The notes beneath the pieces were generated by a model. That model worked only from the letters and a program-made list of their open reading frames with translations, did no database searches and was not told where the DNA came from. Positions 26,208 to 45,571 of a stretch of DNA of 64,000 nt are shown here, in pieces (within the stretch, counting starts at the first letter, position 1; every line of letters starts with the position of its first letter). The stretch is taken from assembly GCA_963762865.1 (NCBI GenBank), contig CAVXNC010000018.1, forward strand, positions 75,506-139,505, in the 5' to 3' direction. A program made the position numbers and the translations under genes. This DNA comes from an uncultured Actinomycetota bacterium. GTDB lineage: Bacteria; Actinomycetota; Actinomycetes; JACCUZ01.

Positions 26208-27876
26208 TCAGTCCTCCACCGGGTGGTACCTCTCCAGCTGGTCGTCGACCCTCGTGCTCGCCTGCCCGGCGCTGGCCCGGTAGCCGGTCACGACCGGGAG
26301 GAAGGCCTCGCGCGCGAGGGACTGCAGCCGGAGGTCGGTCCTGGCGCGGACGGTCGCGGTGCGTGGCACGTCGCGGAGCAGCGCGATCTCACCGAAGAGG
26401 TCGCCCCTGCCCAGGGTGGCGATGACCCGGCCGTCCCCCAGGACCTCCGCCTCGCCCTGCTCGACGACGAAGCAGTGCGACCCGCCCTCGCCCTGCCGGA
26501 ACACCGTCGCCCCGGCCGGCAGCTCGACCGGCACGAGCGCGATCGCCAGCTCCTCGACGGCCGGCAGCGGCAGCGCGGCGAGCATCTCGACCGAGCGAAG
26601 CAGCTCGACCTCCTGGTCCCGCACCCCCATCGACAGGTCCAGCCGGCGCAGGCTCATCCAGGTCGCCACCACCAGCGCCGGGCTGACCAGCCCGATCACG
26701 ACGAGGGCACCCCGGAGCCCCACCAGCGCGATGACGACCGGTGTCAGGGCCGCCCCGGCCCCCAGGAAGAGGGCGCCGACGCCTTCCATGGCGCCGAAGA
26801 CGCGGCGCAGCCATGCCAGTAGGGGTGAGCCGGGCCACCAGCGTGAAGAGCCCGACGTCGACCAGCGCGTTGCCGACCCCGATGAGGAGCAGGAGGGCGA
26901 TGGCCACCGCCTGCACCGGGATCAACCCCACCAGAGCCATGGGCAGCCCCCACAGGGCCACGCCGACGCCGAACCAGCGGGCCAGCCGCTGGTTGCCGAC
27001 GAGCAGCGAGGCCCCCAGCGACCCGACGACCGCGCCGGCGCCGACGGCGGTGTTGAGGGCGCCGACCCCGGACTCGCCCATGTCGAGCAGGTCGATCGCG
27101 ACCACGACGGAGAACACCGCCAGGGCACCGCGCATCAGGATCTGCACCTGGGCGAGCAGCACCAGCACCGCGAGATGACGGCTCCCGCCGATCGTCCGCA
27201 GCCCGGCGACCAGGTCCGCGACGACGCTGGTCGCAGCCGCACCCGACCGCCGGGTCTGCTCCTCGGGTGCGACCCGGGCCATCAGCCCGGCCGACCAGAG
27301 GGAGGCCGCCGCACACGCCACGAAGACGGCTGCCGGGCCGCTGGTGGCGAGCAGGAGAGCTGCCAGGGCGGGGCCCAGCAGGGTCGACAGCGAGTCGATC
27401 ATGCCGCGGACGACGTTGGCTCCGGCCAGCTCCGAGGGCGTACGGCACAGCGAGGGCATCAGCGCCGAGTGCACCGGCCGGAAGACGACGGCCGCAGCCG
27501 TCGACACGACCGCGAGGGCATAGACCCAGACGACAGGTGCGTCCGCGGCGGCGAGCAGCGCGATCAGTCCCGCGGAGATCCCGCGGACCGCCGCGACCCA
27601 GGCGAGGAGGACCTCCCGGCGCCACCTGTCCGCGTAGACCGTCGCGAGGGGCACCACGACGAGCGCGGGCAGCATCCGCAGCAGCGAGACCAGGCCGACC
27701 GCCGTCGCGCCGCCGTGGTCGTAGGCCAGGACGCCCAGCGCGACGGTGAAGGCCCATTCCGCGGTCCACGCGCCCGCGAAGCCCAGCTGCGCCCGGCGCA
27801 GGTTGGGGTTGGCCCAGGTCGCGGCGAATGCACCGCCTGCTGCCCGCACGCGCCCGCGGAGCCCGGTGCCGGCCAC
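26208..27876 (-). CDS. MFS transporter fused to a C-terminal cyclic nucleotide-binding (cNMP) domain, with an apparent frameshift near 26790-26870.
   Basis: An MFS N-terminal half occupies the frame of ORF 27876... The last TM helices plus the cNMP-binding domain (FGEIALL..RTATVRA) occupy ORF 26789..26208, in another frame. Confidence 0.65.
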
Positions 27877-36325: not shown

Positions 36326-36972
36326 CCGGCTCAGGTGCCGACGGCGCAGCGCGGGCCGAGGTGCTCCGCCGGATCCGCACGGCCAACGCCCGCGCCGGCG
36401 TGCGGGAGGTGCCGGCCGTCGAGCGCACCTACCGTGCATCCGGCGAGCACCCGCCCGGCTCCCCCGACGTGCTCGACCTCTTCGAGCACCGGCTGGTCGA
36501 CTACAAGGCCTCGGTCACCCGCACCACGGGAGCCGACCTGCGCGACGCCGTCATCGCCACACTGGCCGGCCTGTCTCTCGATCCCGGCCCCGTCCTGCTG
36601 CCGCCTGGCCTGCCCGCCGAGTGGGCGCCGGAGGGCGTACGCGACTCGGGTGACCTCACTGCCGCCGACCTGGACGGGATGGCGGCGGTCGTGACGGCCT
36701 GCACCGTCGGCTGCGCCGAGACCGGCACCATCGTCCTCGACGGGTCGCCGGACCAGGGCCGGCGCGCGATCACGCTGGTCCCTGACGTGCACGTGTGCGT
36801 CGTGCGCGGCGACCAGGTCGTGCACTCCGTCCCGGAGATGCTCGCCCGCGTCGACGGCACCCGCGCCGTCACTCTCGTGAGCGGGCCGTCCGCGACCAGC
36901 GACATCGAGCTGGACCGGGTGGAGGGTGTCCACGGACCGCGCACCCTCGCCGTGATCCTGGTGACCGGCTGA
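36322..36972 (+). CDS. lutC: L-lactate utilization protein LutC.
   Basis: The GTG start overlaps the frame-corrected lutB stop (GTGA). LUD-domain sequence. Confidence 0.75.
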   Translation: MTGSGADGAARAEVLRRIRTANARAGVREVPAVERTYRASGEHPPGSPDVLDLFEHRLVDYKASVTRTTGADLRDAVIATLAGLSLDPGPVLLPPGLPAEWAPEGVRDSGDLTAADLDGMAAVVTACTVGCAETGTIVLDGSPDQGRRAITLVPDVHVCVVRGDQVVHSVPEMLARVDGTRAVTLVSGPSATSDIELDRVEGVHGPRTLAVILVTG

Positions 36973-37040
36973 CTCCACAGTCCGGCTGGGTCCCACATCC
37001 TGCTGCCGATTGTGTCCAAGGTCAGCCGTACCGTCCCGTC

Positions 37041-38795
37041 ATGGACGACGACCCCGAGCCGACAGGCACCACGACCACCCAGGCACCCACCACCGACGCC
37101 GGGGCCACCACCTCGCGCTTCAGTGAGGTTCCGACCGACGCACTGGCGGACCGTCTCTCCCGCTGGGCGTCGAGCCTGGCCGCGGCGGAGTGCGAGTTCC
37201 TCGACCTGCTGGCTGAGTTCGACGCGCGCCAGGCGTGGGGCGAGTCCGGGATGCGATCCACGGCTCACTGGCTGTCGTGGCGGCTCGGGCTGCGCCTGGG
37301 TGTCGCGCGGGAGAAGGTGCGAGTGGCCCGGGCCCTGCAGCGGCTGCCACTGGTCCACGACGAGTTCGCGGCCGGCACGTTGTCCTACTGCAAGGTGCGC
37401 GCGCTGAGCAGGGTCGCCACCGACGCGACCGAGGCGGAGCTGGTCCACATCGCCCGCGGCGCGACCGGGGCGCAGCTCGAGACCGTCGTGCGGCAGTGGC
37501 GGCGGACCCTGATCGGCGACACAACGGCGTCCTCGCACATCCGTCGCGGTCTCCGGAAGCGGATCGAGGACGACGGGTCCTACGTCGTCACCGTCCGGCT
37601 GTCCCCGGTCGAGGGACCGGTCTTCGCGAAGGCAATCGCCCTCGCCCGCACCTCCGTCCTGGACGAGGCCGGCCAGGTCGTCGAGACCCCGGAGGAGGCC
37701 GCGCTGGCTGACGCGCTCGCCGAGGACTCTCCCTGGGAGCGCTCCGAAGCCGACGCCTTCGTGCTGATCGCCTCGTCGTTCCTGGCCCACGGACCATCCG
37801 GCGAGGCCGGCGACCGGCACCTCGTCCTGGTCCACGCCGACATCGACACGCTCGCCGAGGCGTGTCGCAGCGCAGCGGACGCTGGTGGCCCGGCGGACGC
37901 GGGTGGAGCCGCTGGCGAGCCGTCCAGCAACGGTTCCGCGGAAACGTCGTCGCCAGCGGAAGACTCCCCCGATCGAGACACCGACGAGCGATCCCGAAGC
38001 GTCTCCGCGGAAACGTCCGGGCTCACGCAGCCCGGCTTTGCCGCCCACGAGCCGATCGCTGCGAGCGGGTCCGTGCACCAGGAGTCCTACGCCCGCCGGC
38101 CGGCTACCTGCGTCACCGAGGACGGTCAGCCGATCTCGGCCAGCACCGTGCTGCGCATGCTGTGCGACTCACCGGCCCAGTTGCTCGTCACCGCGCGCGA
38201 CGGCCGACCACTCGACCTCGGCCGGACCAGCCGCAACGCCGACCGTCGCCAGCGCCGCGCCATACGTGTTCGCGACGGCGGCTTCTGCCGGTTCCCCGGC
38301 TGCTCCCAGCGCCACCGCCTCATCCCGCACCACACCCGGTGGTGGAGCCGCGGCGGGCGGACCGATCTCGACCTCCTGGTCAGCGTGTGTCCCACGCACC
38401 ACCTGGCGGTCCACGAGCTGGGCTACGACGTCACCGCTCTCGGCGGTGGCCGCTTCGCCTGGTACCGGCCGGACGGCCAGGAGATCAGCGCGGCACCGAC
38501 GCTCGGCGACGAGGTGGCGACGTCGCCCGGCTCGGTCGTTGGGCCGGCGGCTGCGGCGGGCGACTCGTCGCGGTCCGGCGGGCAGCGGATCGTGCCGATG
38601 TGGGGCGGCGAGCGGATCGACCTCGACCACCTGCTCGGCGGGATGGCCGCCAACCTGCTCAACGACGCCGGCCACCGTCTCACCGACATCCCCTACTCCG
38701 CACTCGACCAGACCCTGCGGACGGCAGCCGGATGGCCGGCCGCACAGCCCGGCCACCGACCATTCGACGGTCCGCGGGACGCGAACGCCGCCTGA
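37041..38795 (+). CDS. DUF222 domain-containing HNH endonuclease (REP13E12-like).
   Basis: DUF222 N-terminal region and a C-terminal HNH motif (CRFPGCSQRHRLIPHHTRWW...CPTHH). An intact paralog-type relative of the pseudogene at 4256-5600. Confidence 0.8.
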   Translation: MDDDPEPTGTTTTQAPTTDAGATTSRFSEVPTDALADRLSRWASSLAAAECEFLDLLAEFDARQAWGESGMRSTAHWLSWRLGLRLGVAREKVRVARALQRLPLVHDEFAAGTLSYCKVRALSRVATDATEAELVHIARGATGAQLETVVRQWRRTLIGDTTASSHIRRGLRKRIEDDGSYVVTVRLSPVEGPVFAKAIALARTSVLDEAGQVVETPEEAALADALAEDSPWERSEADAFVLIASSFLAHGPSGEAGDRHLVLVHADIDTLAEACRSAADAGGPADAGGAAGEPSSNGSAETSSPAEDSPDRDTDERSRSVSAETSGLTQPGFAAHEPIAASGSVHQESYARRPATCVTEDGQPISASTVLRMLCDSPAQLLVTARDGRPLDLGRTSRNADRRQRRAIRVRDGGFCRFPGCSQRHRLIPHHTRWWSRGGRTDLDLLVSVCPTHHLAVHELGYDVTALGGGRFAWYRPDGQEISAAPTLGDEVATSPGSVVGPAAAAGDSSRSGGQRIVPMWGGERIDLDHLLGGMAANLLNDAGHRLTDIPYSALDQTLRTAAGWPAAQPGHRPFDGPRDANAA

Positions 38796-38831
38796 CCCCG
38801 CTGCTGCCGTGAGACGGCGGCGCACCTAGAT

Positions 38832-39497
38832 GTGTTCGAGAACCCGCTCGTCACGGGCGACAGCTTCGGGTTCGGTCACCGCCCCGACGCCGACCACGCG
38901 GCTGCCGTGCTCGACATGGTGACCGCGGTCCACGGCGCACCCGCCCGGGTCATGGACCTCGCGCCGGTTGACGACTTCGCCATCCCGCACCGGGACCAGG
39001 TCGAGGCGGCTCTGAACGGTGAGGCCGTCGACGGCGCTGCGGGACCGTACGCCCTCGAGACGGCCCGCCTCGTCACCCGGCACGGCCCCGCGATCCGGGC
39101 GGCACTGCACCGCTACGACGAGCTCGTCTCAGCGGCACTGTCGGCGCGCGGCCGCGCCGTCCTCACCCATGGCGAGCCGCACCCCGGCAACACGATGCGC
39201 ACCGGCGCCGGATGGGTCCTCATCGACTGGGACACCGCCCGCGTCGCACCGCCCGAGCGCGACCTGTGGAGCCTGGACCCGGGGGACGGGTCGGTCCACG
39301 CGGCCTACACCGCAGGCACCGGGACGGAGCTGCGGCCCCGGCTGCTGGAGCTCTACCGCAGGCGGTGGGACCTGGCGGACGTCGCGGTGGACGTCGCCAG
39401 GTTCCGCCGCCGCCACGTCGGCAGCGCTGAGGACTCGAAGTCCTTCGAGATCCTCGGCGCGCAGCTGGCCGGCCTCGCCGGGCTCGACGACCGCTAG
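38832..39497 (+). CDS. Phosphotransferase (APH/choline-kinase-like) family protein, N-terminally truncated.
   Basis: The catalytic-loop region is present (HGEPHPGNTMRTGAGWVLIDWDTARVAPPERDLWSL) but the N-terminal ATP-binding lobe is missing. The frame opens immediately after the HNH gene stop. Confidence 0.55.
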   Translation: MFENPLVTGDSFGFGHRPDADHAAAVLDMVTAVHGAPARVMDLAPVDDFAIPHRDQVEAALNGEAVDGAAGPYALETARLVTRHGPAIRAALHRYDELVSAALSARGRAVLTHGEPHPGNTMRTGAGWVLIDWDTARVAPPERDLWSLDPGDGSVHAAYTAGTGTELRPRLLELYRRRWDLADVAVDVARFRRRHVGSAEDSKSFEILGAQLAGLAGLDDR

Positions 39498-40446: not shown

Positions 40447-40733
40447 GCTCAGTGCGCCTTGTCGTAGGCCTCGATGATGGTCGCCGGGATGCGGCCGCGC
40501 TCGTTGACCTTGTGGCCGTTGGACCGGGCCCACTCGCGGATCTCGGCGGTGCGGTTGTCGCCGCCACGACGCGCCCGGCCTCGACTGCTGCCACGCCCGC
40601 CCGAGGAGCGGCCACCGACCCGACGGGCCTGCCCGACGTACTGCCCGAAGGCGTCCCGCATCTTCCCGGCGTTCTTGGCGCTCAGGTCGATCTCGTAGGA
40701 GACGCCGTCGAGGGAGAAGGACACGGTCTCGTC
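40447..40733. repeat. 287-bp direct repeat, copy A (lsr2 3' segment).
   Basis: Near-identical (2 mismatches) to 41321-41607. Confidence 0.85.
40449..40733 (-). pseudogene. Truncated duplicate of the lsr2 3' portion (C-terminal ~95 codons).
   Basis: A 287-bp direct repeat of lsr2 codons 18-112 (two mismatches versus 41321-41607). The N-terminal dimerisation strand is replaced by unrelated Arg-rich sequence. Confidence 0.55.
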
Positions 40734-40807
40734 GCTGATCCTGTGGTGGCTGTTGCGTAAGGTGTGGGACTGGTGAGACCTTCTAGATCTCGAACGCGGC
40801 GCTGCTA

Positions 40808-41035
40808 GTGTGGCTCGCCCCAGTAGTCGGGCTCGGCAACGTCCCGGCCGCAGTCGGTGGCTCAAGCGCGGCTGCCGCAGTAGTGCGGCAAGTAGGTCTG
40901 GACGATATGGCGCCGGTGACCACGAGACTGGCGATCCCGCTGACGCCGGTGATCGTGGCGGCACTCCTCCTGGTGGTCGCCGACACCGTTCGTACGGGGA
41001 CGCGGATGCGCGCCGACCTCGAAGGCCTGGTGTGA
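40808..41035 (+). CDS. Possible small membrane protein (fragment of a DUF2975-like partner?); low confidence.
   Basis: A hydrophobic C-terminal stretch (MAPVTTRLAIPLTPVIVAALLLVVADTV) immediately upstream of the XRE HTH gene. Confidence 0.3.
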   Translation: MWLAPVVGLGNVPAAVGGSSAAAAVVRQVGLDDMAPVTTRLAIPLTPVIVAALLLVVADTVRTGTRMRADLEGLV

Positions 41036-41320: not shown

Positions 41321-41607
41321 GCTCAGTGCGCCTTGTCGTAGGCCTCGATGATGGTCGCCGGGATGCGGCCGCGCTCGTTGACCTTGTGGCCGTTGGACCG
41401 GGCCCACTCGCGGATCTCGGCGGTGCGGTTGTCGCCGCCACGACGCGCCCGGCCACGACTGCTGCCACGCCCGCCCGAGGAGCGGCCACCGACCCGGCGG
41501 GCCTGCCCGACGTACTGCCCGAAGGCGTCCCGCATCTTCCCGGCGTTCTTGGCGCTCAGGTCGATCTCGTAGGAGACGCCGTCGAGGGAGAAGGACACGG
41601 TCTCGTC
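41321..41607. repeat. 287-bp direct repeat, copy B (within intact lsr2).
   Basis: Near-identical to 40447-40733, offset 874 bp. Confidence 0.85.
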
Positions 41608-41661
41608 CGCCGTTCCCCCGTCGATGTCGTCGACCAGCAGGACGGTGACTTTCTGCGCCAT
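41323..41661 (-). CDS. lsr2: Nucleoid-associated protein Lsr2.
   Basis: 112 aa ([16 protein letters not shown]...[16 protein letters not shown]). Canonical Lsr2 with an RGR AT-hook. AT-rich upstream region. Confidence 0.9.
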
Positions 41662-41785: not shown

Positions 41786-41902
41786 CTATTCCGCCTCGCG
41801 GTGGTCCTCTTCAGAATCCGCCCGCTTCTTCACCGCGATGACGATGGCGACGAATGCGGCACCGACGACTACCGGCGGCAACAGGGCGGCGAGGACGTCC
41901 AT
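41786..41902 (-). CDS. Possible 38-aa single-TM membrane peptide translationally coupled to lysS; low confidence.
   Basis: The ATG overlaps the lysS TGA (TGATG). Sequence [38 protein letters not shown]. Confidence 0.3.
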
Positions 41903-43386
41903 CAGCCGGATTCCGGACGGAGCAGCGGAAATGCAATCGTCTCGCGGATCGACTTTCCGGTGAGAAGCATGATCAGCCGGTCGATTCCCAGGCCCATTCC
42001 GCCCTGGGGCGGCATCCCGAACTCCATGGCCCGCAGGAAGTCCTCGTCCAGCTGCATTGCCTCCTGGTCGCCGCCAGCAGCCTTCAGTGACTGCTCCTCG
42101 AGCCGACGGCGCTGCTCGACCGGGTCGTTGAGCTCGGAGTAGGCCGGGGCCAGCTCGACGCCGTTGACGATCAGGTCCCAGGCCTCCACCAGCCCGGGCA
42201 CCGACCGGTGCGGCTTGGCGAGCGGCTTGACCTCGGCCGGGTAGTCGGTGACGAAGGTCGGCCGCCGCAGGTCGTGCTCCACGAGCTGCTCGTAGAGCTC
42301 GACGACGATCTCCGCCGCGTGCCACGACTGCTGCAGCGCGACGTCGTGCCGGTCGGCGATCTTGCGCAGCGCGTCGACCGGGGTCTGCAGGTCGACCTGC
42401 TCGCCGACCGCGCGGGACACCGCCTCGAGGATCGGCAGCCGTTCCCAGCCGTCGGCCAGGTCGATCTGACCGCCAGCTCCGTCGGGCACGACCGTCGTCC
42501 CGAGCAACGCCTGTGCGGCGTCGAGCACGATCTCGCGGGTGAGCTCGGCCATCGAGTCGTAGTCGCCGTAGGCCTGGTAGACCTCGAGCATCGTGAACTC
42601 GGGGCTGTGGGTGCTGTCGACGCCCTCGTTGCGGAAGTTGCGGCCGATCTCGTAGACCCGGTCGAGCCCGCCGACGACCAGCCGCTTGAGGTAGAGCTCG
42701 ATGGCGATCCGCAGGTACATCTGCTGGTCGAAGGCGTTGAGGTGCGTGGCGAACGGCCGGGCCGCCGCGCCGCCGTGCAGCGGCTGCAGCATCGGCGTCT
42801 CCACCTCGAGGAAGCCGTGCCGGTCGAGCGTCGCGCGGACCGAGCGAAGCACCGTCGCCCGGGCCCGGATCATGTCGCGCGACTCGGCGTTGACGGCCAG
42901 GTCGACGTAGCGCAGCCGGACGCGCGCCTCCGGGTCCTGCAGTCCCTTGTGCTTGTCAGGCAGCGGCCGTAGCGCCTTGGCGACCATGGTCCAGCTGTCG
43001 GCGAGCACCGAGAGCTCACCGCGCTTGCTGGAGATGACCTCGCCCTCGACCCCAACGTGGTCTCCGAGGTCGACGTCACCCTTCCAGTGCGCCAGCTGCT
43101 CCTCGCCGACCTTGTCGAGCGAGATCATCACCTGCACCTCGCCGGTGCCGTCGCGCAGCGTGGCGAAGCAGAGCTTGCCCCCGACGCGGGAGAGGACGAC
43201 CCGGCCGACGACGGCCGCGCGCTCGCCGGAGTGCTGGTCGACCTCGAGGTCGGCGTGCTCCGCGCGCAGGTCCGCGATGGTCGTCGTCCTCGCGACCGTC
43301 ACCGGGTAGGGCTCGACACCGCGCTCGCGCATCCGGTCGAGCTTCTCCCGGCGGACCCGCATCTGCTCGGGCAGCTCGTCGCTCAC
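41902..43386 (-). CDS. lysS: Lysine--tRNA ligase (class II).
   Basis: 494 aa with class II aaRS motifs and an OB anticodon-binding N-terminus. Confidence 0.95.
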
Positions 43387-43417
43387 CCGGCAAGGCTACC
43401 CAGCCCCCTCCCGCCGG

Positions 43418-43477
43418 TTGACTGGCGCGTTGCGGCTGTCCGTCGCGGCACAGAACCGCCGCAACGCGCCAGTCGAC
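43418..43477. repeat. ~60-bp palindromic repeat element, copy 1 (hairpin-forming).
   Basis: ttgactggcgcgttgcggc...gccgcaacgcgccagtcgac, with a 17-19 bp perfect stem. Lies between the lysS start and the marR stop. Confidence 0.8.
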
Positions 43478-43495
43478 GGCCGGATGCTCTTCCGG

Positions 43496-43939
43496 TCAGC
43501 GGAACGGGTCGCTGACCTCCCGGAGCCTGGCGAGGGCTCGGCGCAGCTGTGACATGCCGCGGACCCCCAGGTGCTCGGTCCACTCCGCCTCGACTGCCTC
43601 GACCGCGGCGGCGGCCACCGGCGCCGCCGCCCTGCCCCGGCGCCCGATCCGCACCAGCCGGGCGCGCGCGTCGGTCGGGTCGGGCACCCGTTCGACGTAG
43701 CCGGCGCTCTCGAGCTGGTCCACGAGGAAGCCAGCGGTCTGCTTGGTCACCTGCGCTGCCGCGGCCAGCTCCGACAGGCGGGTGCCGCCCGGACCGATCC
43801 GCTGGAAGACCCGCGCCTGCGCCAGGGTGATGTCGTCGAAGCCTGCATCGGCCACCGCCTCCAGCACCCGCGACTCCATCGCGCGGTAGGAGACGAAGAG
43901 CAGCACCCCGACGTTCGGCTCGTCGTCCGTCGTCGCCAT
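43496..43939 (-). CDS. MarR family transcriptional regulator.
   Basis: A winged-HTH MarR sequence (LTLAQARVFQRI...RLSELAAAAQVTKQTAGFLVDQLESAGYVERVPDPTDARA). Confidence 0.8.
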   Translation of the reverse strand: MATTDDEPNVGVLLFVSYRAMESRVLEAVADAGFDDITLAQARVFQRIGPGGTRLSELAAAAQVTKQTAGFLVDQLESAGYVERVPDPTDARARLVRIGRRGRAAAPVAAAAVEAVEAEWTEHLGVRGMSQLRRALARLREVSDPFR

Positions 43940-44013
43940 GGCCCTCCTTGACAGCAATCCGGTCGAGCACTATTGATAGTCAGATAATCTTACTACTTTG
44001 GTACGAGGTCAGC
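43940..44013. promoter_or_regulatory. AT-rich divergent promoter/operator region between marR and the DinB-superfamily gene.
   Basis: A 74-bp spacer (cttgacagcaatcc...ctattgatagtcagataatcttactactttgg) with a -35-like TTGACA. Much lower GC than the surroundings. Confidence 0.4.
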
Positions 44014-44679
44014 GTGGGCCGTCCGCAGGCATGGCAGGTCATCAGCCGCGAACGCGCGCGCCTCGCCGACCTGCTCGACAGCCTCACGCCGGCGGAGTGG
44101 GAACACCCCTCGCTGTGCGCCGGGTGGACGGTCAAGCACACGGCCGCCCACGTGATCTCCTCGCCGCAGGCCACACCATGGGACGTCGGCGTCGCTCTGC
44201 TGCGGGCCCGAGGAAGCTTCGACAGGTGCATCGACGAGCAGGCCCGGAGATGGGCGGACCGGCCGACCGAGCAGATCGTCGCCGACTACCGCCGCCTCGA
44301 CGGGTCCCAGCGCCACCCGATCGGCACGACGTACTACGAGCCGCTGCTCGACGTGCTGGTGCACAGCCAGGACATCGCGATCCCGCTGCAGCGCGACCAC
44401 GACATGCCGGTCGACGCCGCGCGCGCCGCGGCCGACCGCGTGTGGCGACGCGCGTTTCCCTTCCGTGCGCGCAGCCGCCTGGCCGGTCTGCGGCTCAGGG
44501 CGACCGACACGGACTGGGCGGTGGGCGAGCGAGCGGCAGCGGGCGGACTGGGGGGACCGGTCGTCGAGGGCACCATGGCGGACCTGCTACTGCTGCTGAC
44601 CGGGCGCCCGGTGGTGCTGCCCCGTCTCACCGGTCCGGGCGTCGAGCTGCTGCGGGAGCGCGTCCGACCCACCCGTTGA
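44014..44679 (+). CDS. DinB-superfamily protein (mycothiol-dependent maleylpyruvate isomerase N-terminal domain, TIGR03083-like).
   Basis: The GTG start is divergent from marR. Contains the conserved WTVKHTAAHV motif. Confidence 0.7.
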   Translation: MGRPQAWQVISRERARLADLLDSLTPAEWEHPSLCAGWTVKHTAAHVISSPQATPWDVGVALLRARGSFDRCIDEQARRWADRPTEQIVADYRRLDGSQRHPIGTTYYEPLLDVLVHSQDIAIPLQRDHDMPVDAARAAADRVWRRAFPFRARSRLAGLRLRATDTDWAVGERAAAGGLGGPVVEGTMADLLLLLTGRPVVLPRLTGPGVELLRERVRPTR

Positions 44680-44736
44680 CTGGCGCGTTGCGGCTGTCCT
44701 GTCGCGGTACAGAACCGCCGCAACGCGCCAGTCGAC
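44676..44736. repeat. ~60-bp palindromic repeat element, copy 2.
   Basis: Same stem arms as copy 1 with a slightly diverged loop. Spans the stop codon of the DinB-superfamily gene and lies before the coaX 3' end. Confidence 0.8.
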
Positions 44737-44770
44737 GAACGGGTGGGACGGCGGGTCGGTCGGCCGGACG

Positions 44771-45571
44771 CTAGGGGCGGTTGCGCTCGAAGACCAGCCG
44801 GAGCCCGACCAGCGTCAGCCACGGCTCGTGCAGGTCGATGACGCCGGACTCGTCGAGCACCATCGTGGCCAGCCCGCCGGTGGCGATGACCGTGACGTCC
44901 CCCGGGTCACCGTCGGGGCCGACGATCTCGGCGGACATCCGGGTCACGACACCGTCCACCTGACCGGCGAAGCCGTAGAGGATGCCCGCCTGCAGCGCCT
45001 CGACCGTGTTGCGCCCGATGACCGACCGGGGCCGGGCGAGCTCCACCCGGCGCAGCTGCGCGCCCCGGGCGCCCAGCGCCTCCACCGAGATCTCGATGCC
45101 GGGCGCGATGGCGCCGCCGAGGTACTCCCCCTTCGCCGACACCGCGTCGAAGGTGGTCGCGGTCCCGAAGTCGACCACGATGCACGGGCCGCCGACCAGG
45201 TCGACCGCCGCCAGCGCGTTGACGACACGGTCGGTGCCGACCTCCTTCGGGTTGTCGGTGAGAACCGGGACACCGGTGCGCACGCCAGGCTCGACGACGA
45301 CGGCCGGCACGCCGGCGTAGTAGCGCTGGCACATGTCGCGCATCTCGTGCAGCACCGACGGCACGGTCGAGCACAGCGAGATGCCGTCCACGACCGCGAC
45401 ACCGGGACCGGACGGCGCGTGGTTCTGGGCCAGCAGCCCGTGCAGCACGACCGCGATCTCGTCAGCGGTGCGGTGCGACTCGGTCGCGATCCGCCAGTGC
45501 TCGACGAGGTCCGTGCCGTCGAAGAGGCCGAGCACCGTGTGCGTGTTGCCGACGTCGATCGCGAGCAGCAT
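44771..45571 (-). CDS. coaX: Type III pantothenate kinase.
   Basis: Starts MLLAIDVGNTHTV, with the ATG overlapping the nadC stop (ATGA). An ASKHA-fold sequence. Confidence 0.85.
   Translation of the reverse strand: MLLAIDVGNTHTVLGLFDGTDLVEHWRIATESHRTADEIAVVLHGLLAQNHAPSGPGVAVVDGISLCSTVPSVLHEMRDMCQRYYAGVPAVVVEPGVRTGVPVLTDNPKEVGTDRVVNALAAVDLVGGPCIVVDFGTATTFDAVSAKGEYLGGAIAPGIEISVEALGARGAQLRRVELARPRSVIGRNTVEALQAGILYGFAGQVDGVVTRMSAEIVGPDGDPGDVTVIATGGLATMVLDESGVIDLHEPWLTLVGLRLVFERNRP

Follow-up and report, generated by a model that had tools for sequence, protein, structure and literature searches.

Repetitive extragenic palindromic (REP) sequences and bacterial interspersed mosaic elements (BIMEs) stabilise the 3' ends of mRNAs and are also used as substrates in recombination. 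Proteobacterial repeats of this small palindromic kind are well studied, whereas those of high-GC actinomycetes have been poorly catalogued. The classical REP/BIME elements have been surveyed (PMC12306157), REP doublets that form hairpins (REPINs) and are mobilised by REP-associated tyrosine transposases of the Y1 type (RAYTs) have been described in Pseudomonas fluorescens SBW25 (PMC3116915), and bacterial miniature inverted-repeat transposable elements (MITEs) such as Correia/NEMIS, RUP, and Nezha have been reviewed (PMC3184786). Here we describe a palindromic element that occurs twice in a 64-kb stretch of contig CAVXNC010000018.1, referred to below as the window, which comes from an uncultured soil actinomycete whose CoaX is 84-85% identical to that of Sporichthyaceae metagenome-assembled genomes (MAGs). 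The two copies bracket a pair of genes, marR and a gene resembling mycothiol-dependent maleylpyruvate isomerase (MDMPI), which together we call the module and which stands between lysS and coaX. Classical REPs are imperfect palindromes of 20-40 nt present in hundreds of copies, whereas the palindrome at this locus is nearly perfect, about 62 nt long, conserved at its termini, and hypervariable in the middle.

Our analysis makes it probable that these copies are members of a family of small intergenic palindromes, REP/REPIN-like or MITE-like, dispersed in a soil actinomycete lineage, and that the marR/MDMPI module is ancestral at this site and was deleted in sister strains by recombination between the repeats. 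The two copies in the window are as follows:

43417-43477, 61 nt: copy 1 (H1), at junction A, between the marR stop and the lysS start
44675-44736, 62 nt: copy 2 (H2), at junction B, between the convergent MDMPI-like gene and coaX

Copy 1 is laid out as GTTGAC-TGGCGCGTTGCGGC-21 nt-GCCGCAACGCGCCA-GTCGAC, and its perfect arms of 17 nt each lie at 43420-43436 and 43458-43474. The same perfect 17-nt arms recur in copy 2 at 44678-44694 and 44717-44733. Each of these arms matches GACTGGCGCGTTGCGGC or its reverse complement GCCGCAACGCGCCAGTC exactly, and the 64-kb window has no other arm of this type even when 3 mismatches are allowed. Both elements end in the terminal hexamers GTTGAC...GTCGAC, beyond which an imperfect palindrome reaches 43411-43483 for copy 1 and 44661-44750 for copy 2. 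They are the two longest hairpins of the window, and none of 200 shuffled sequences folded as well as they do. Their folding energies are -56 to -71 kcal/mol, with z-scores of -5.4 to -10.4. One indel and one substitution, both within the loop, separate copy 1 from copy 2. Their interiors are 94% identical in the same orientation and 75% identical with one of them flipped, so the direct orientation that had been ascribed to them is meaningful, and they constitute direct repeats 1.26 kb apart.

The original prediction, made from the sequence of this stretch, that two near-identical palindromes bracket the marR/MDMPI pair is thus confirmed at the coordinates above. It had also placed the stop codon of the plus-strand gene inside copy 2, and the TGA of the MDMPI-like gene (44677-44679) does fall within the terminal GTTGAC of that copy. 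The claim that the elements flank the module exactly is accurate as to bracketing but not as to abutment, since copy 1 lies 18 nt past the marR stop. It lies 30 nt upstream of the lysS GTG, and 34 nt separate copy 2 from the coaX stop.

The evidence for a family comes from copies at other places. A scan with the 17-mer arm, which covered one genome per species, returned mostly chance single-arm matches in unrelated phyla. Among the matches listed there were at least 8 full hairpins, on 8 contigs of two MAGs named 'Actinomycetes bacterium', and each of these two fragmentary actinomycete MAGs holds at least 4 copies. A two-arm pattern search yielded 11 further copies on 11 soil-metagenome contigs. 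Together, at least 19 further copies with the same arms are found at unrelated loci, and additional ones occur at the lysS-coaX locus of related strains. The original prediction had listed a MITE/REP-like repeat family among its options and had named confinement to the two sites in the window as the observation that would speak against one. Since copies occur at many unrelated loci in related genomes and metagenomes, the element is not so confined, and the family is upheld. Twenty-one copies have a common layout, cGTCGAC-TGGCGCGTTGCGGC-N21-23-GCCGCAACGCGCCA-GTCGACg, with loops that differ widely.

Nearly all copies are intergenic and sit beside housekeeping genes, including mraZ/mraW and genes for Mur ligases, PBP, ArgJ, a CoA ligase, and MTHFR, and no recurrent partner gene was seen among the neighbours of the copies. 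The family is uncatalogued, with no Rfam model and with its arm sequence in no paper of the library searched. In the whole window Rfam gave 0 matches at gathering thresholds, and permissive E-values brought up only sub-threshold miRNA-precursor models, which are generic long hairpins; a full-text literature search with either arm sequence returned no paper. A covariance model was built from the first subfamily, and the element can be written as the pattern GACTGGCGCG-N35-36-CGCGCCAGTC. Two matches to the covariance model were rejected, one at L134 3738-3791, a generic hairpin with different arms, and one at 26789-26846 of the window, which lies in coding sequence. Fuzzy outer-stem matches in the window were likewise dismissed, their frequency being that of shuffled sequence (3.6 per 64 kb).

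An element measures about 62 bp. Its inverted termini, GTYGACTGGCGCG ... CGCGCCAGTCRAC, are strongly conserved over 13 bp, and their outer-to-outer length stays at 55-56 nt. Subfamilies, and orthologous copies too, have different interiors of about 35 nt, which as a rule are still self-complementary. Pairing in the outer stem reaches 93%, and stem pair 10-62 (CG in 16, GC in 3) together with 5 of 6 apex pairs has changed on both sides. Pairing is equal on both strands, and an occasional T-G / C-A asymmetry is independent of the direction of transcription. The palindrome therefore looks like a property of the DNA rather than of a strand-specific RNA. It tends to continue outward as C-rich 5' and G-rich 3' flanks, as judged by a flank C/G score that is blind to orientation.

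Related loci (L numbers below) were collected through MDMPI and CoaX homologues and the contigs encoding them, and include L148 (ERZ25039536 contig_4245, 215 kb) and L156 (ERZ25039476 contig_2619, 1.9 Mb). They revealed a second type of element with the same outer stem GTYGACTGGCGCG ... CGCGCCAGTCRAC, a 55-nt outer length, and an unrelated interior. Second-type elements are present at junction B of L132, L140, L153, and L154, where they overlap the MDMPI stop in the same way as copy 2 does, and in L153 and L154 they are present at junction A too. They score 28-55 bits with the covariance model of the first subfamily, and several keep a full-length hairpin despite their unrelated interiors. The termini (10-13 bp) are identical in the main and second types, while the interiors are 43-55% identical. 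By eye, the arm itself contains at most a weak mini-stem of 3-4 bp (GCGC-GTT-GCG) in TGGCGCGTTGCGGC, and the second-type arms are without it. L151 has first-type elements at both junctions. Its junction-A element has the same position as copy 1 and a similar loop, and its coaX-side element lies 6 nt from the coaX stop and has a different loop. A single terminus is left in L133 and L143. In the hairpin-less alleles (L133, L134-136, and L143) the MDMPI stop is embedded in TGAC(T/C)GGCGCG, which equals the left terminus of the element; at a hairpin-less junction B this motif could either have been left behind by a very old element or be a sequence that elements prefer as a target.

Five of the related contigs (L138, L141, L142, L145, and L147) end within or at the element just after coaX, and in L141 the left arm is followed by a poly-G artefact. 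It seems that short-read metagenome assemblies are broken by the palindrome.

The gene order lysS-marR-MDMPI-coaX-nadC-nadB-panC is kept in two sister clades that are about 12-14% diverged in coaX, and synteny of the module was found in L132-L137, L140, L143, L151, L153, and L154. L134-L137 carry the module with no element at either junction, their gaps measuring 14-36 nt; junction A is empty in L132, L133, L134, and L137, and L132 has an element at junction B alone. The identities of MDMPI (83/81/77/69%) parallel the clades. In the outgroup L156 (about 85% CoaX identity) coaX is directly followed by lysS. Because the module is found in both sister clades and is missing from the outgroup, it would have entered once, before the clades split, and the junction-A element would have come later. 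This distribution shows the marR/MDMPI module to be ancestral at the site and older than the junction-A element. One of the options in the original prediction, that the repeats are scars of module insertion, is not supported: some strains have the module and no element (L134-L137) or an element on one side (L132), the interior of copy 2 comes from the junction-A lineage, and module-less alleles are nested among module-bearing strains. The accompanying statement that the module interrupts a conserved lysS-coaX neighbourhood holds at greater depth, as L156 demonstrates. The 147-nt coaX-lysS gap of that outgroup (L156 5814-5960) contains unrelated palindromes, AGTTGATCACG...CGTGGTCAACT and GACAGTGGC...GCCACTGTC, and hairpins at the coaX-lysS junction seem to be a recurring theme across lineages.

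Relatives in which lysS adjoins coaX with no module, which the original prediction had suggested looking for, exist within the ingroup as well. In L127, L148, L149, and L150, coaX is followed by one element and then by lysS. In the coaX and lysS trees L127 and L148-150 are nested inside the module-bearing clade A. L148-150 are the closest relatives of the window, 1.0-1.5% apart from it in coaX and about 96-97% identical over 12.8 kb. In L148 the left part of the hairpin aligns to copy 2 and the right part to copy 1. The interior of this hairpin shares 86% identity with the coaX-side copy of L151/L139, and its lysS-side flank matches the flank of copy 1. The interior of the L127 element is 97% identical to the junction-A copy of L151. 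A hybrid element such as that of L148 is what a crossover between junction-B and junction-A copies is expected to give. The most parsimonious explanation of these alignments would be two independent repeat-mediated deletions of the module, one in the L127 lineage and one in the L148-150 lineage. The repeats thus appear to promote loss of the module rather than to mark its arrival. Misassembly of the module-less allele was rejected, since four contigs from four samples, assembled independently, agree and one of them is 215 kb long. Elevated divergence next to the junction, as an imported allele would give, was not found; coaX is the least diverged stretch.

The likeness of the two copies in the window has a history of its own. 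The interior of copy 2, besides its closeness to copy 1, is 89% identical to the junction-A copy of L151 and 43-55% identical to its positional orthologues. Since copy 2 is closer to copy 1 than to its counterparts at junction B of other strains, we infer gene conversion, which may have started at the shared termini and replaced the sequence of copy 2 with that of copy 1. An element that re-inserted into the old one would be an alternative way to the same likeness. As to how the element moves, L139, L144, and L146 differ from L143 by a clean first-type insertion that adds about 64 nt. Microhomology at the site amounts to 2 nt at most, and the target was not duplicated; these strains have an identical CoaX protein and about 2% nucleotide divergence. 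No conserved direct repeat flanks the 21 copies. The missing target duplication and the hairpin form would fit better with a single-strand, HUH/RAYT-like route than with a DDE-type MITE route.

These observations can be arranged into a sequence of events. An old element would have stood at junction B, and a junction-A element would have arrived at the base of the clade to which the window belongs. In the window genome the junction-B copy would then have been overwritten by gene conversion from the junction-A copy, giving two near-identical direct repeats. In other genomes a crossover between the flanking copies would have deleted the module, at least twice, and left one hybrid element each time. 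A role of the hairpins at mRNA ends or as insulators is possible alongside this history. A more specific version, which we consider improbable, takes the conserved ends and the constant 55-56-nt length as signs that a dedicated actinomycete enzyme recognises the hairpin, either a RAYT-like HUH protein or a structure-specific recombinase, and both disperses copies and catalyses exchange between them. If this were true, genes caught between two copies, here marR/MDMPI, would amount to a reversibly excisable cassette.

Several points weigh against a mobile family that deletes the module by recombination. The L148 element is unlike the product of an H1 x H2 crossover in a window-like genome: its loop type differs, and its coaX-side flank is 7 nt rather than 34 nt, though L148 is a sister of the window. 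To arrive at it, one or more additional events are needed, be it a conversion, a replacement, or the import or exchange of an allele. The window holds just two copies in 64 kb, and the counts from the genome scan are lower bounds. The invariance of 14 nt in the arms is partly by construction, as those bases were the search pattern. The 25 Pfam families that recur most often in 56 neighbouring open reading frames (ORFs) include no transposase, RAYT, or related insertion sequence (IS), the sequence covered being 64 kb of the source genome and fragments of 1-13 kb from relatives. The absence of target duplication is drawn from one insertion event. Apex pairing per copy is just modestly above that of shuffled sequence (mean z -0.84), and two second-type interiors are unstructured. 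Finally, the strict conservation of termini and length could mean a host function instead of mobility.

This last point is the core of a rival reading in which the elements are host cis-acting hairpins kept by selection, their spread being secondary, and serve as bidirectional terminators, as 3'-end stabilisers, or as barriers before the lysS promoter. It partly overlaps the reading we prefer, and we regard it as unlikely. REPs of E. coli, too, do transcript-end and insulator-type jobs. In the family described here a stop codon precedes about 13 of the 21 copies by no more than 100 nt, several of these copies lie between convergent genes, and the stems are very stable on both strands. The junction-B element persists in both clades, its termini perfect while its interior turned over, and copy 1 stands just upstream of a conserved -10-like TAGCCT, a putative promoter motif before lysS. 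Bidirectional terminators had been one of the original options, and the hairpins could have this function. The hairpins are there, but their tails (GACGGCCGG and GACGAACGG) contain no U-tract, and a terminator scan calls neither copy of the window. At least two copies (L054 and L124) lie between divergent gene starts. A terminator needs no sequence-level conservation of its termini, no consistent G-U versus A-C strand asymmetry is seen, and close relatives function without an element at this locus (L134-L137 and L143).

Direct repeats around a two-gene unit, alleles with the unit and two sites or without it and with one, and a single L148 site that is a hybrid of the two flanking copies might also be read as att- or attC-like recombination sites, with marR/MDMPI as a mobile cassette moved by a dedicated recombinase and the copies as recombinant junctions. 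Integron attC sites are indeed similar: they too are imperfect palindromes, conserved at the ends and variable in the middle, and they enclose a short gene unit that some alleles have and others lack. The elements here differ in having perfect stems with no extrahelical bases and ends of the form GTYGAC/GTCRAC rather than RYYYAAC/GTTRRRY cores, and elsewhere they occur singly among housekeeping genes and form no arrays. Unlike an integron cassette, the module has its own divergent promoter region and is vertically inherited, its phylogeny tracking the flanking genes. Strains that lack a site at one junction or at both carry the module in the same position, and no integrase is among the 25 families listed for neighbouring ORFs. 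Direct repeats of 55-60 bp suffice for RecA-type deletion, which counts further against a dedicated system, and we give this reading very little credence. The chance is also slim that the 13-bp termini act as a pair of half-sites to which a DNA-binding protein attaches as a dimer or tetramer, for instance a global regulator or a factor of the nucleoid or of segregation, with the interior as a spacer. Termini and the 55-56-nt length are kept even where the interior is unalignable, as such sites would have it, but a spacer would not need to be self-complementary, and most interiors are significantly so though unrelated to each other. The copies occur after genes as often as before them, and no candidate protein was identified; a separation of about 30-35 bp between half-sites is unusual for operators and so adds to the case against. 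The idea that a terminator was simply duplicated on the spot, outside any wider family, carries practically no weight: the two copies of the window resemble each other more than those of any other pair do and are the only ones in 64 kb, yet the same arms at unrelated loci, and in other strains at this one, refute it.

The genes of the locus, whose assignments in the original prediction agree with the Pfam matches, and the hexamer before lysS are as follows:

41902-43386, minus strand: lysS, class II lysyl-tRNA synthetase (Pfam tRNA-synt_2, 5.7e-86), the left neighbour of the module
43393-43398, minus strand: TAGCCT, a TANNNT-type -10-like hexamer 6 nt upstream of the lysS GTG, within GGTAGCCTTGCCGG-GTG
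43496-43942, minus strand: marR, MarR-family regulator gene (Pfam MarR_2, 5.2e-11; MarR, 2.6e-08)
44014-44679, plus strand: MDMPI-like gene of the DinB superfamily, TIGR03083-type (Pfam MDMPI_N, 2.1e-10)
44771-45571, minus strand: coaX, type III pantothenate kinase of 266 aa (Pfam Pan_kinase, 3.1e-74), the right neighbour

The stretch GGTAGCCTTGCCGG before the lysS GTG (window 43387-43404) is conserved in L127, L132-L137, L148, L151-L154, and L156, and ccggcaaggcta is kept in all junction-A sequences compared. TAGCCT may be the promoter of a leaderless lysS transcript, in which case copy 1 would lie just upstream of the promoter; this assignment is modelled on actinobacterial leaderless promoters. 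The MDMPI-like gene has a GTG start and a TGA stop. Its product has 898 homologues, of which P0001 is 100% identical, and its C-terminus is colinear with them. At about 44524-44547 the protein has an 8-residue insertion, ERAAAGGL, that is missing from all 10 of 10 aligned homologues and makes it 221 aa rather than 213 aa long. A plus-strand terminator-like hairpin with a T-rich tail at 44437-44454, inside the coding sequence of this gene, is probably a chance match. A role of the palindromes as MarR operators was set aside, as the copies are dispersed at unrelated loci and the divergent region between marR and the MDMPI-like gene lies elsewhere (43943-44013). In the window nadB was found beyond coaX.

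Two further features of the window lie on the other side of lysS. A direct repeat of 287 nt with 99% identity occupies 40447-40733 and 41321-41607, 874 nt apart. Its upstream copy makes up most of lsr2 (41323-41661, minus strand), and the other copy supplies the 3' region of a chimeric ORF (40449-40964, minus strand) in which the dimerisation and DNA-binding domains of Lsr2 are still recognised; L148 has a single lsr2. A segment of about 2.3 kb (approximately 37027-39293) is missing from L148 and may be a separate insertion. It contains an ORF of 666 aa (36795-38795, plus strand) with a DUF222 domain, a family that occurs in mycobacterial mobile elements of the REP13E12 type. No link between this DUF222 gene of the window and the palindromic element was detected.

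The locus offers a natural allelic series, which runs from no element through one element, two different elements, and two homogenised elements to a deleted module with one hybrid element. It illustrates that such repeats can remove a regulator/enzyme pair from between two essential genes within a species, and it carries a warning for annotation, as repeats around a gene pair need not signal that the pair was inserted. The presence/absence polymorphism of marR/MDMPI could serve as a strain marker. None of these findings overturns current understanding.

Among the described systems, classical enterobacterial REP/BIME elements share with this family their nature as GC-rich extragenic palindromes, often placed after stops or between convergent genes. 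They differ in length and in the GTAG motif, as the unit here measures 61-62 nt, ends in GTYGAC, and has no GTAG. Bacterial MITEs are alike in having conserved terminal inverted repeats and variable interiors that define subfamilies, in being non-coding and intergenic, and in showing presence/absence polymorphism between close strains. The element is unlike them in that no target-site duplication accompanies the clean insertion seen in L139 versus L143, and its 62 bp place it at the very small end of their sizes; we know of no parent IS with the same ends. Compared with REPINs, whose cognate RAYT gene typically has the elements on its flanks, it is shorter (about 62 nt), may be present in few copies, has arms that are weak palindromes at best, has no conserved GTAG-type head, and resides in a high-GC actinomycete rather than in a proteobacterium or cyanobacterium. 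Like REPINs, it consists of two inverted conserved arms of 17-20 nt around a variable spacer of 21-23 nt that together form one long hairpin, is extragenic and dispersed, leaves single-arm remnants (L133 and L143), and in one instance was inserted without target duplication.

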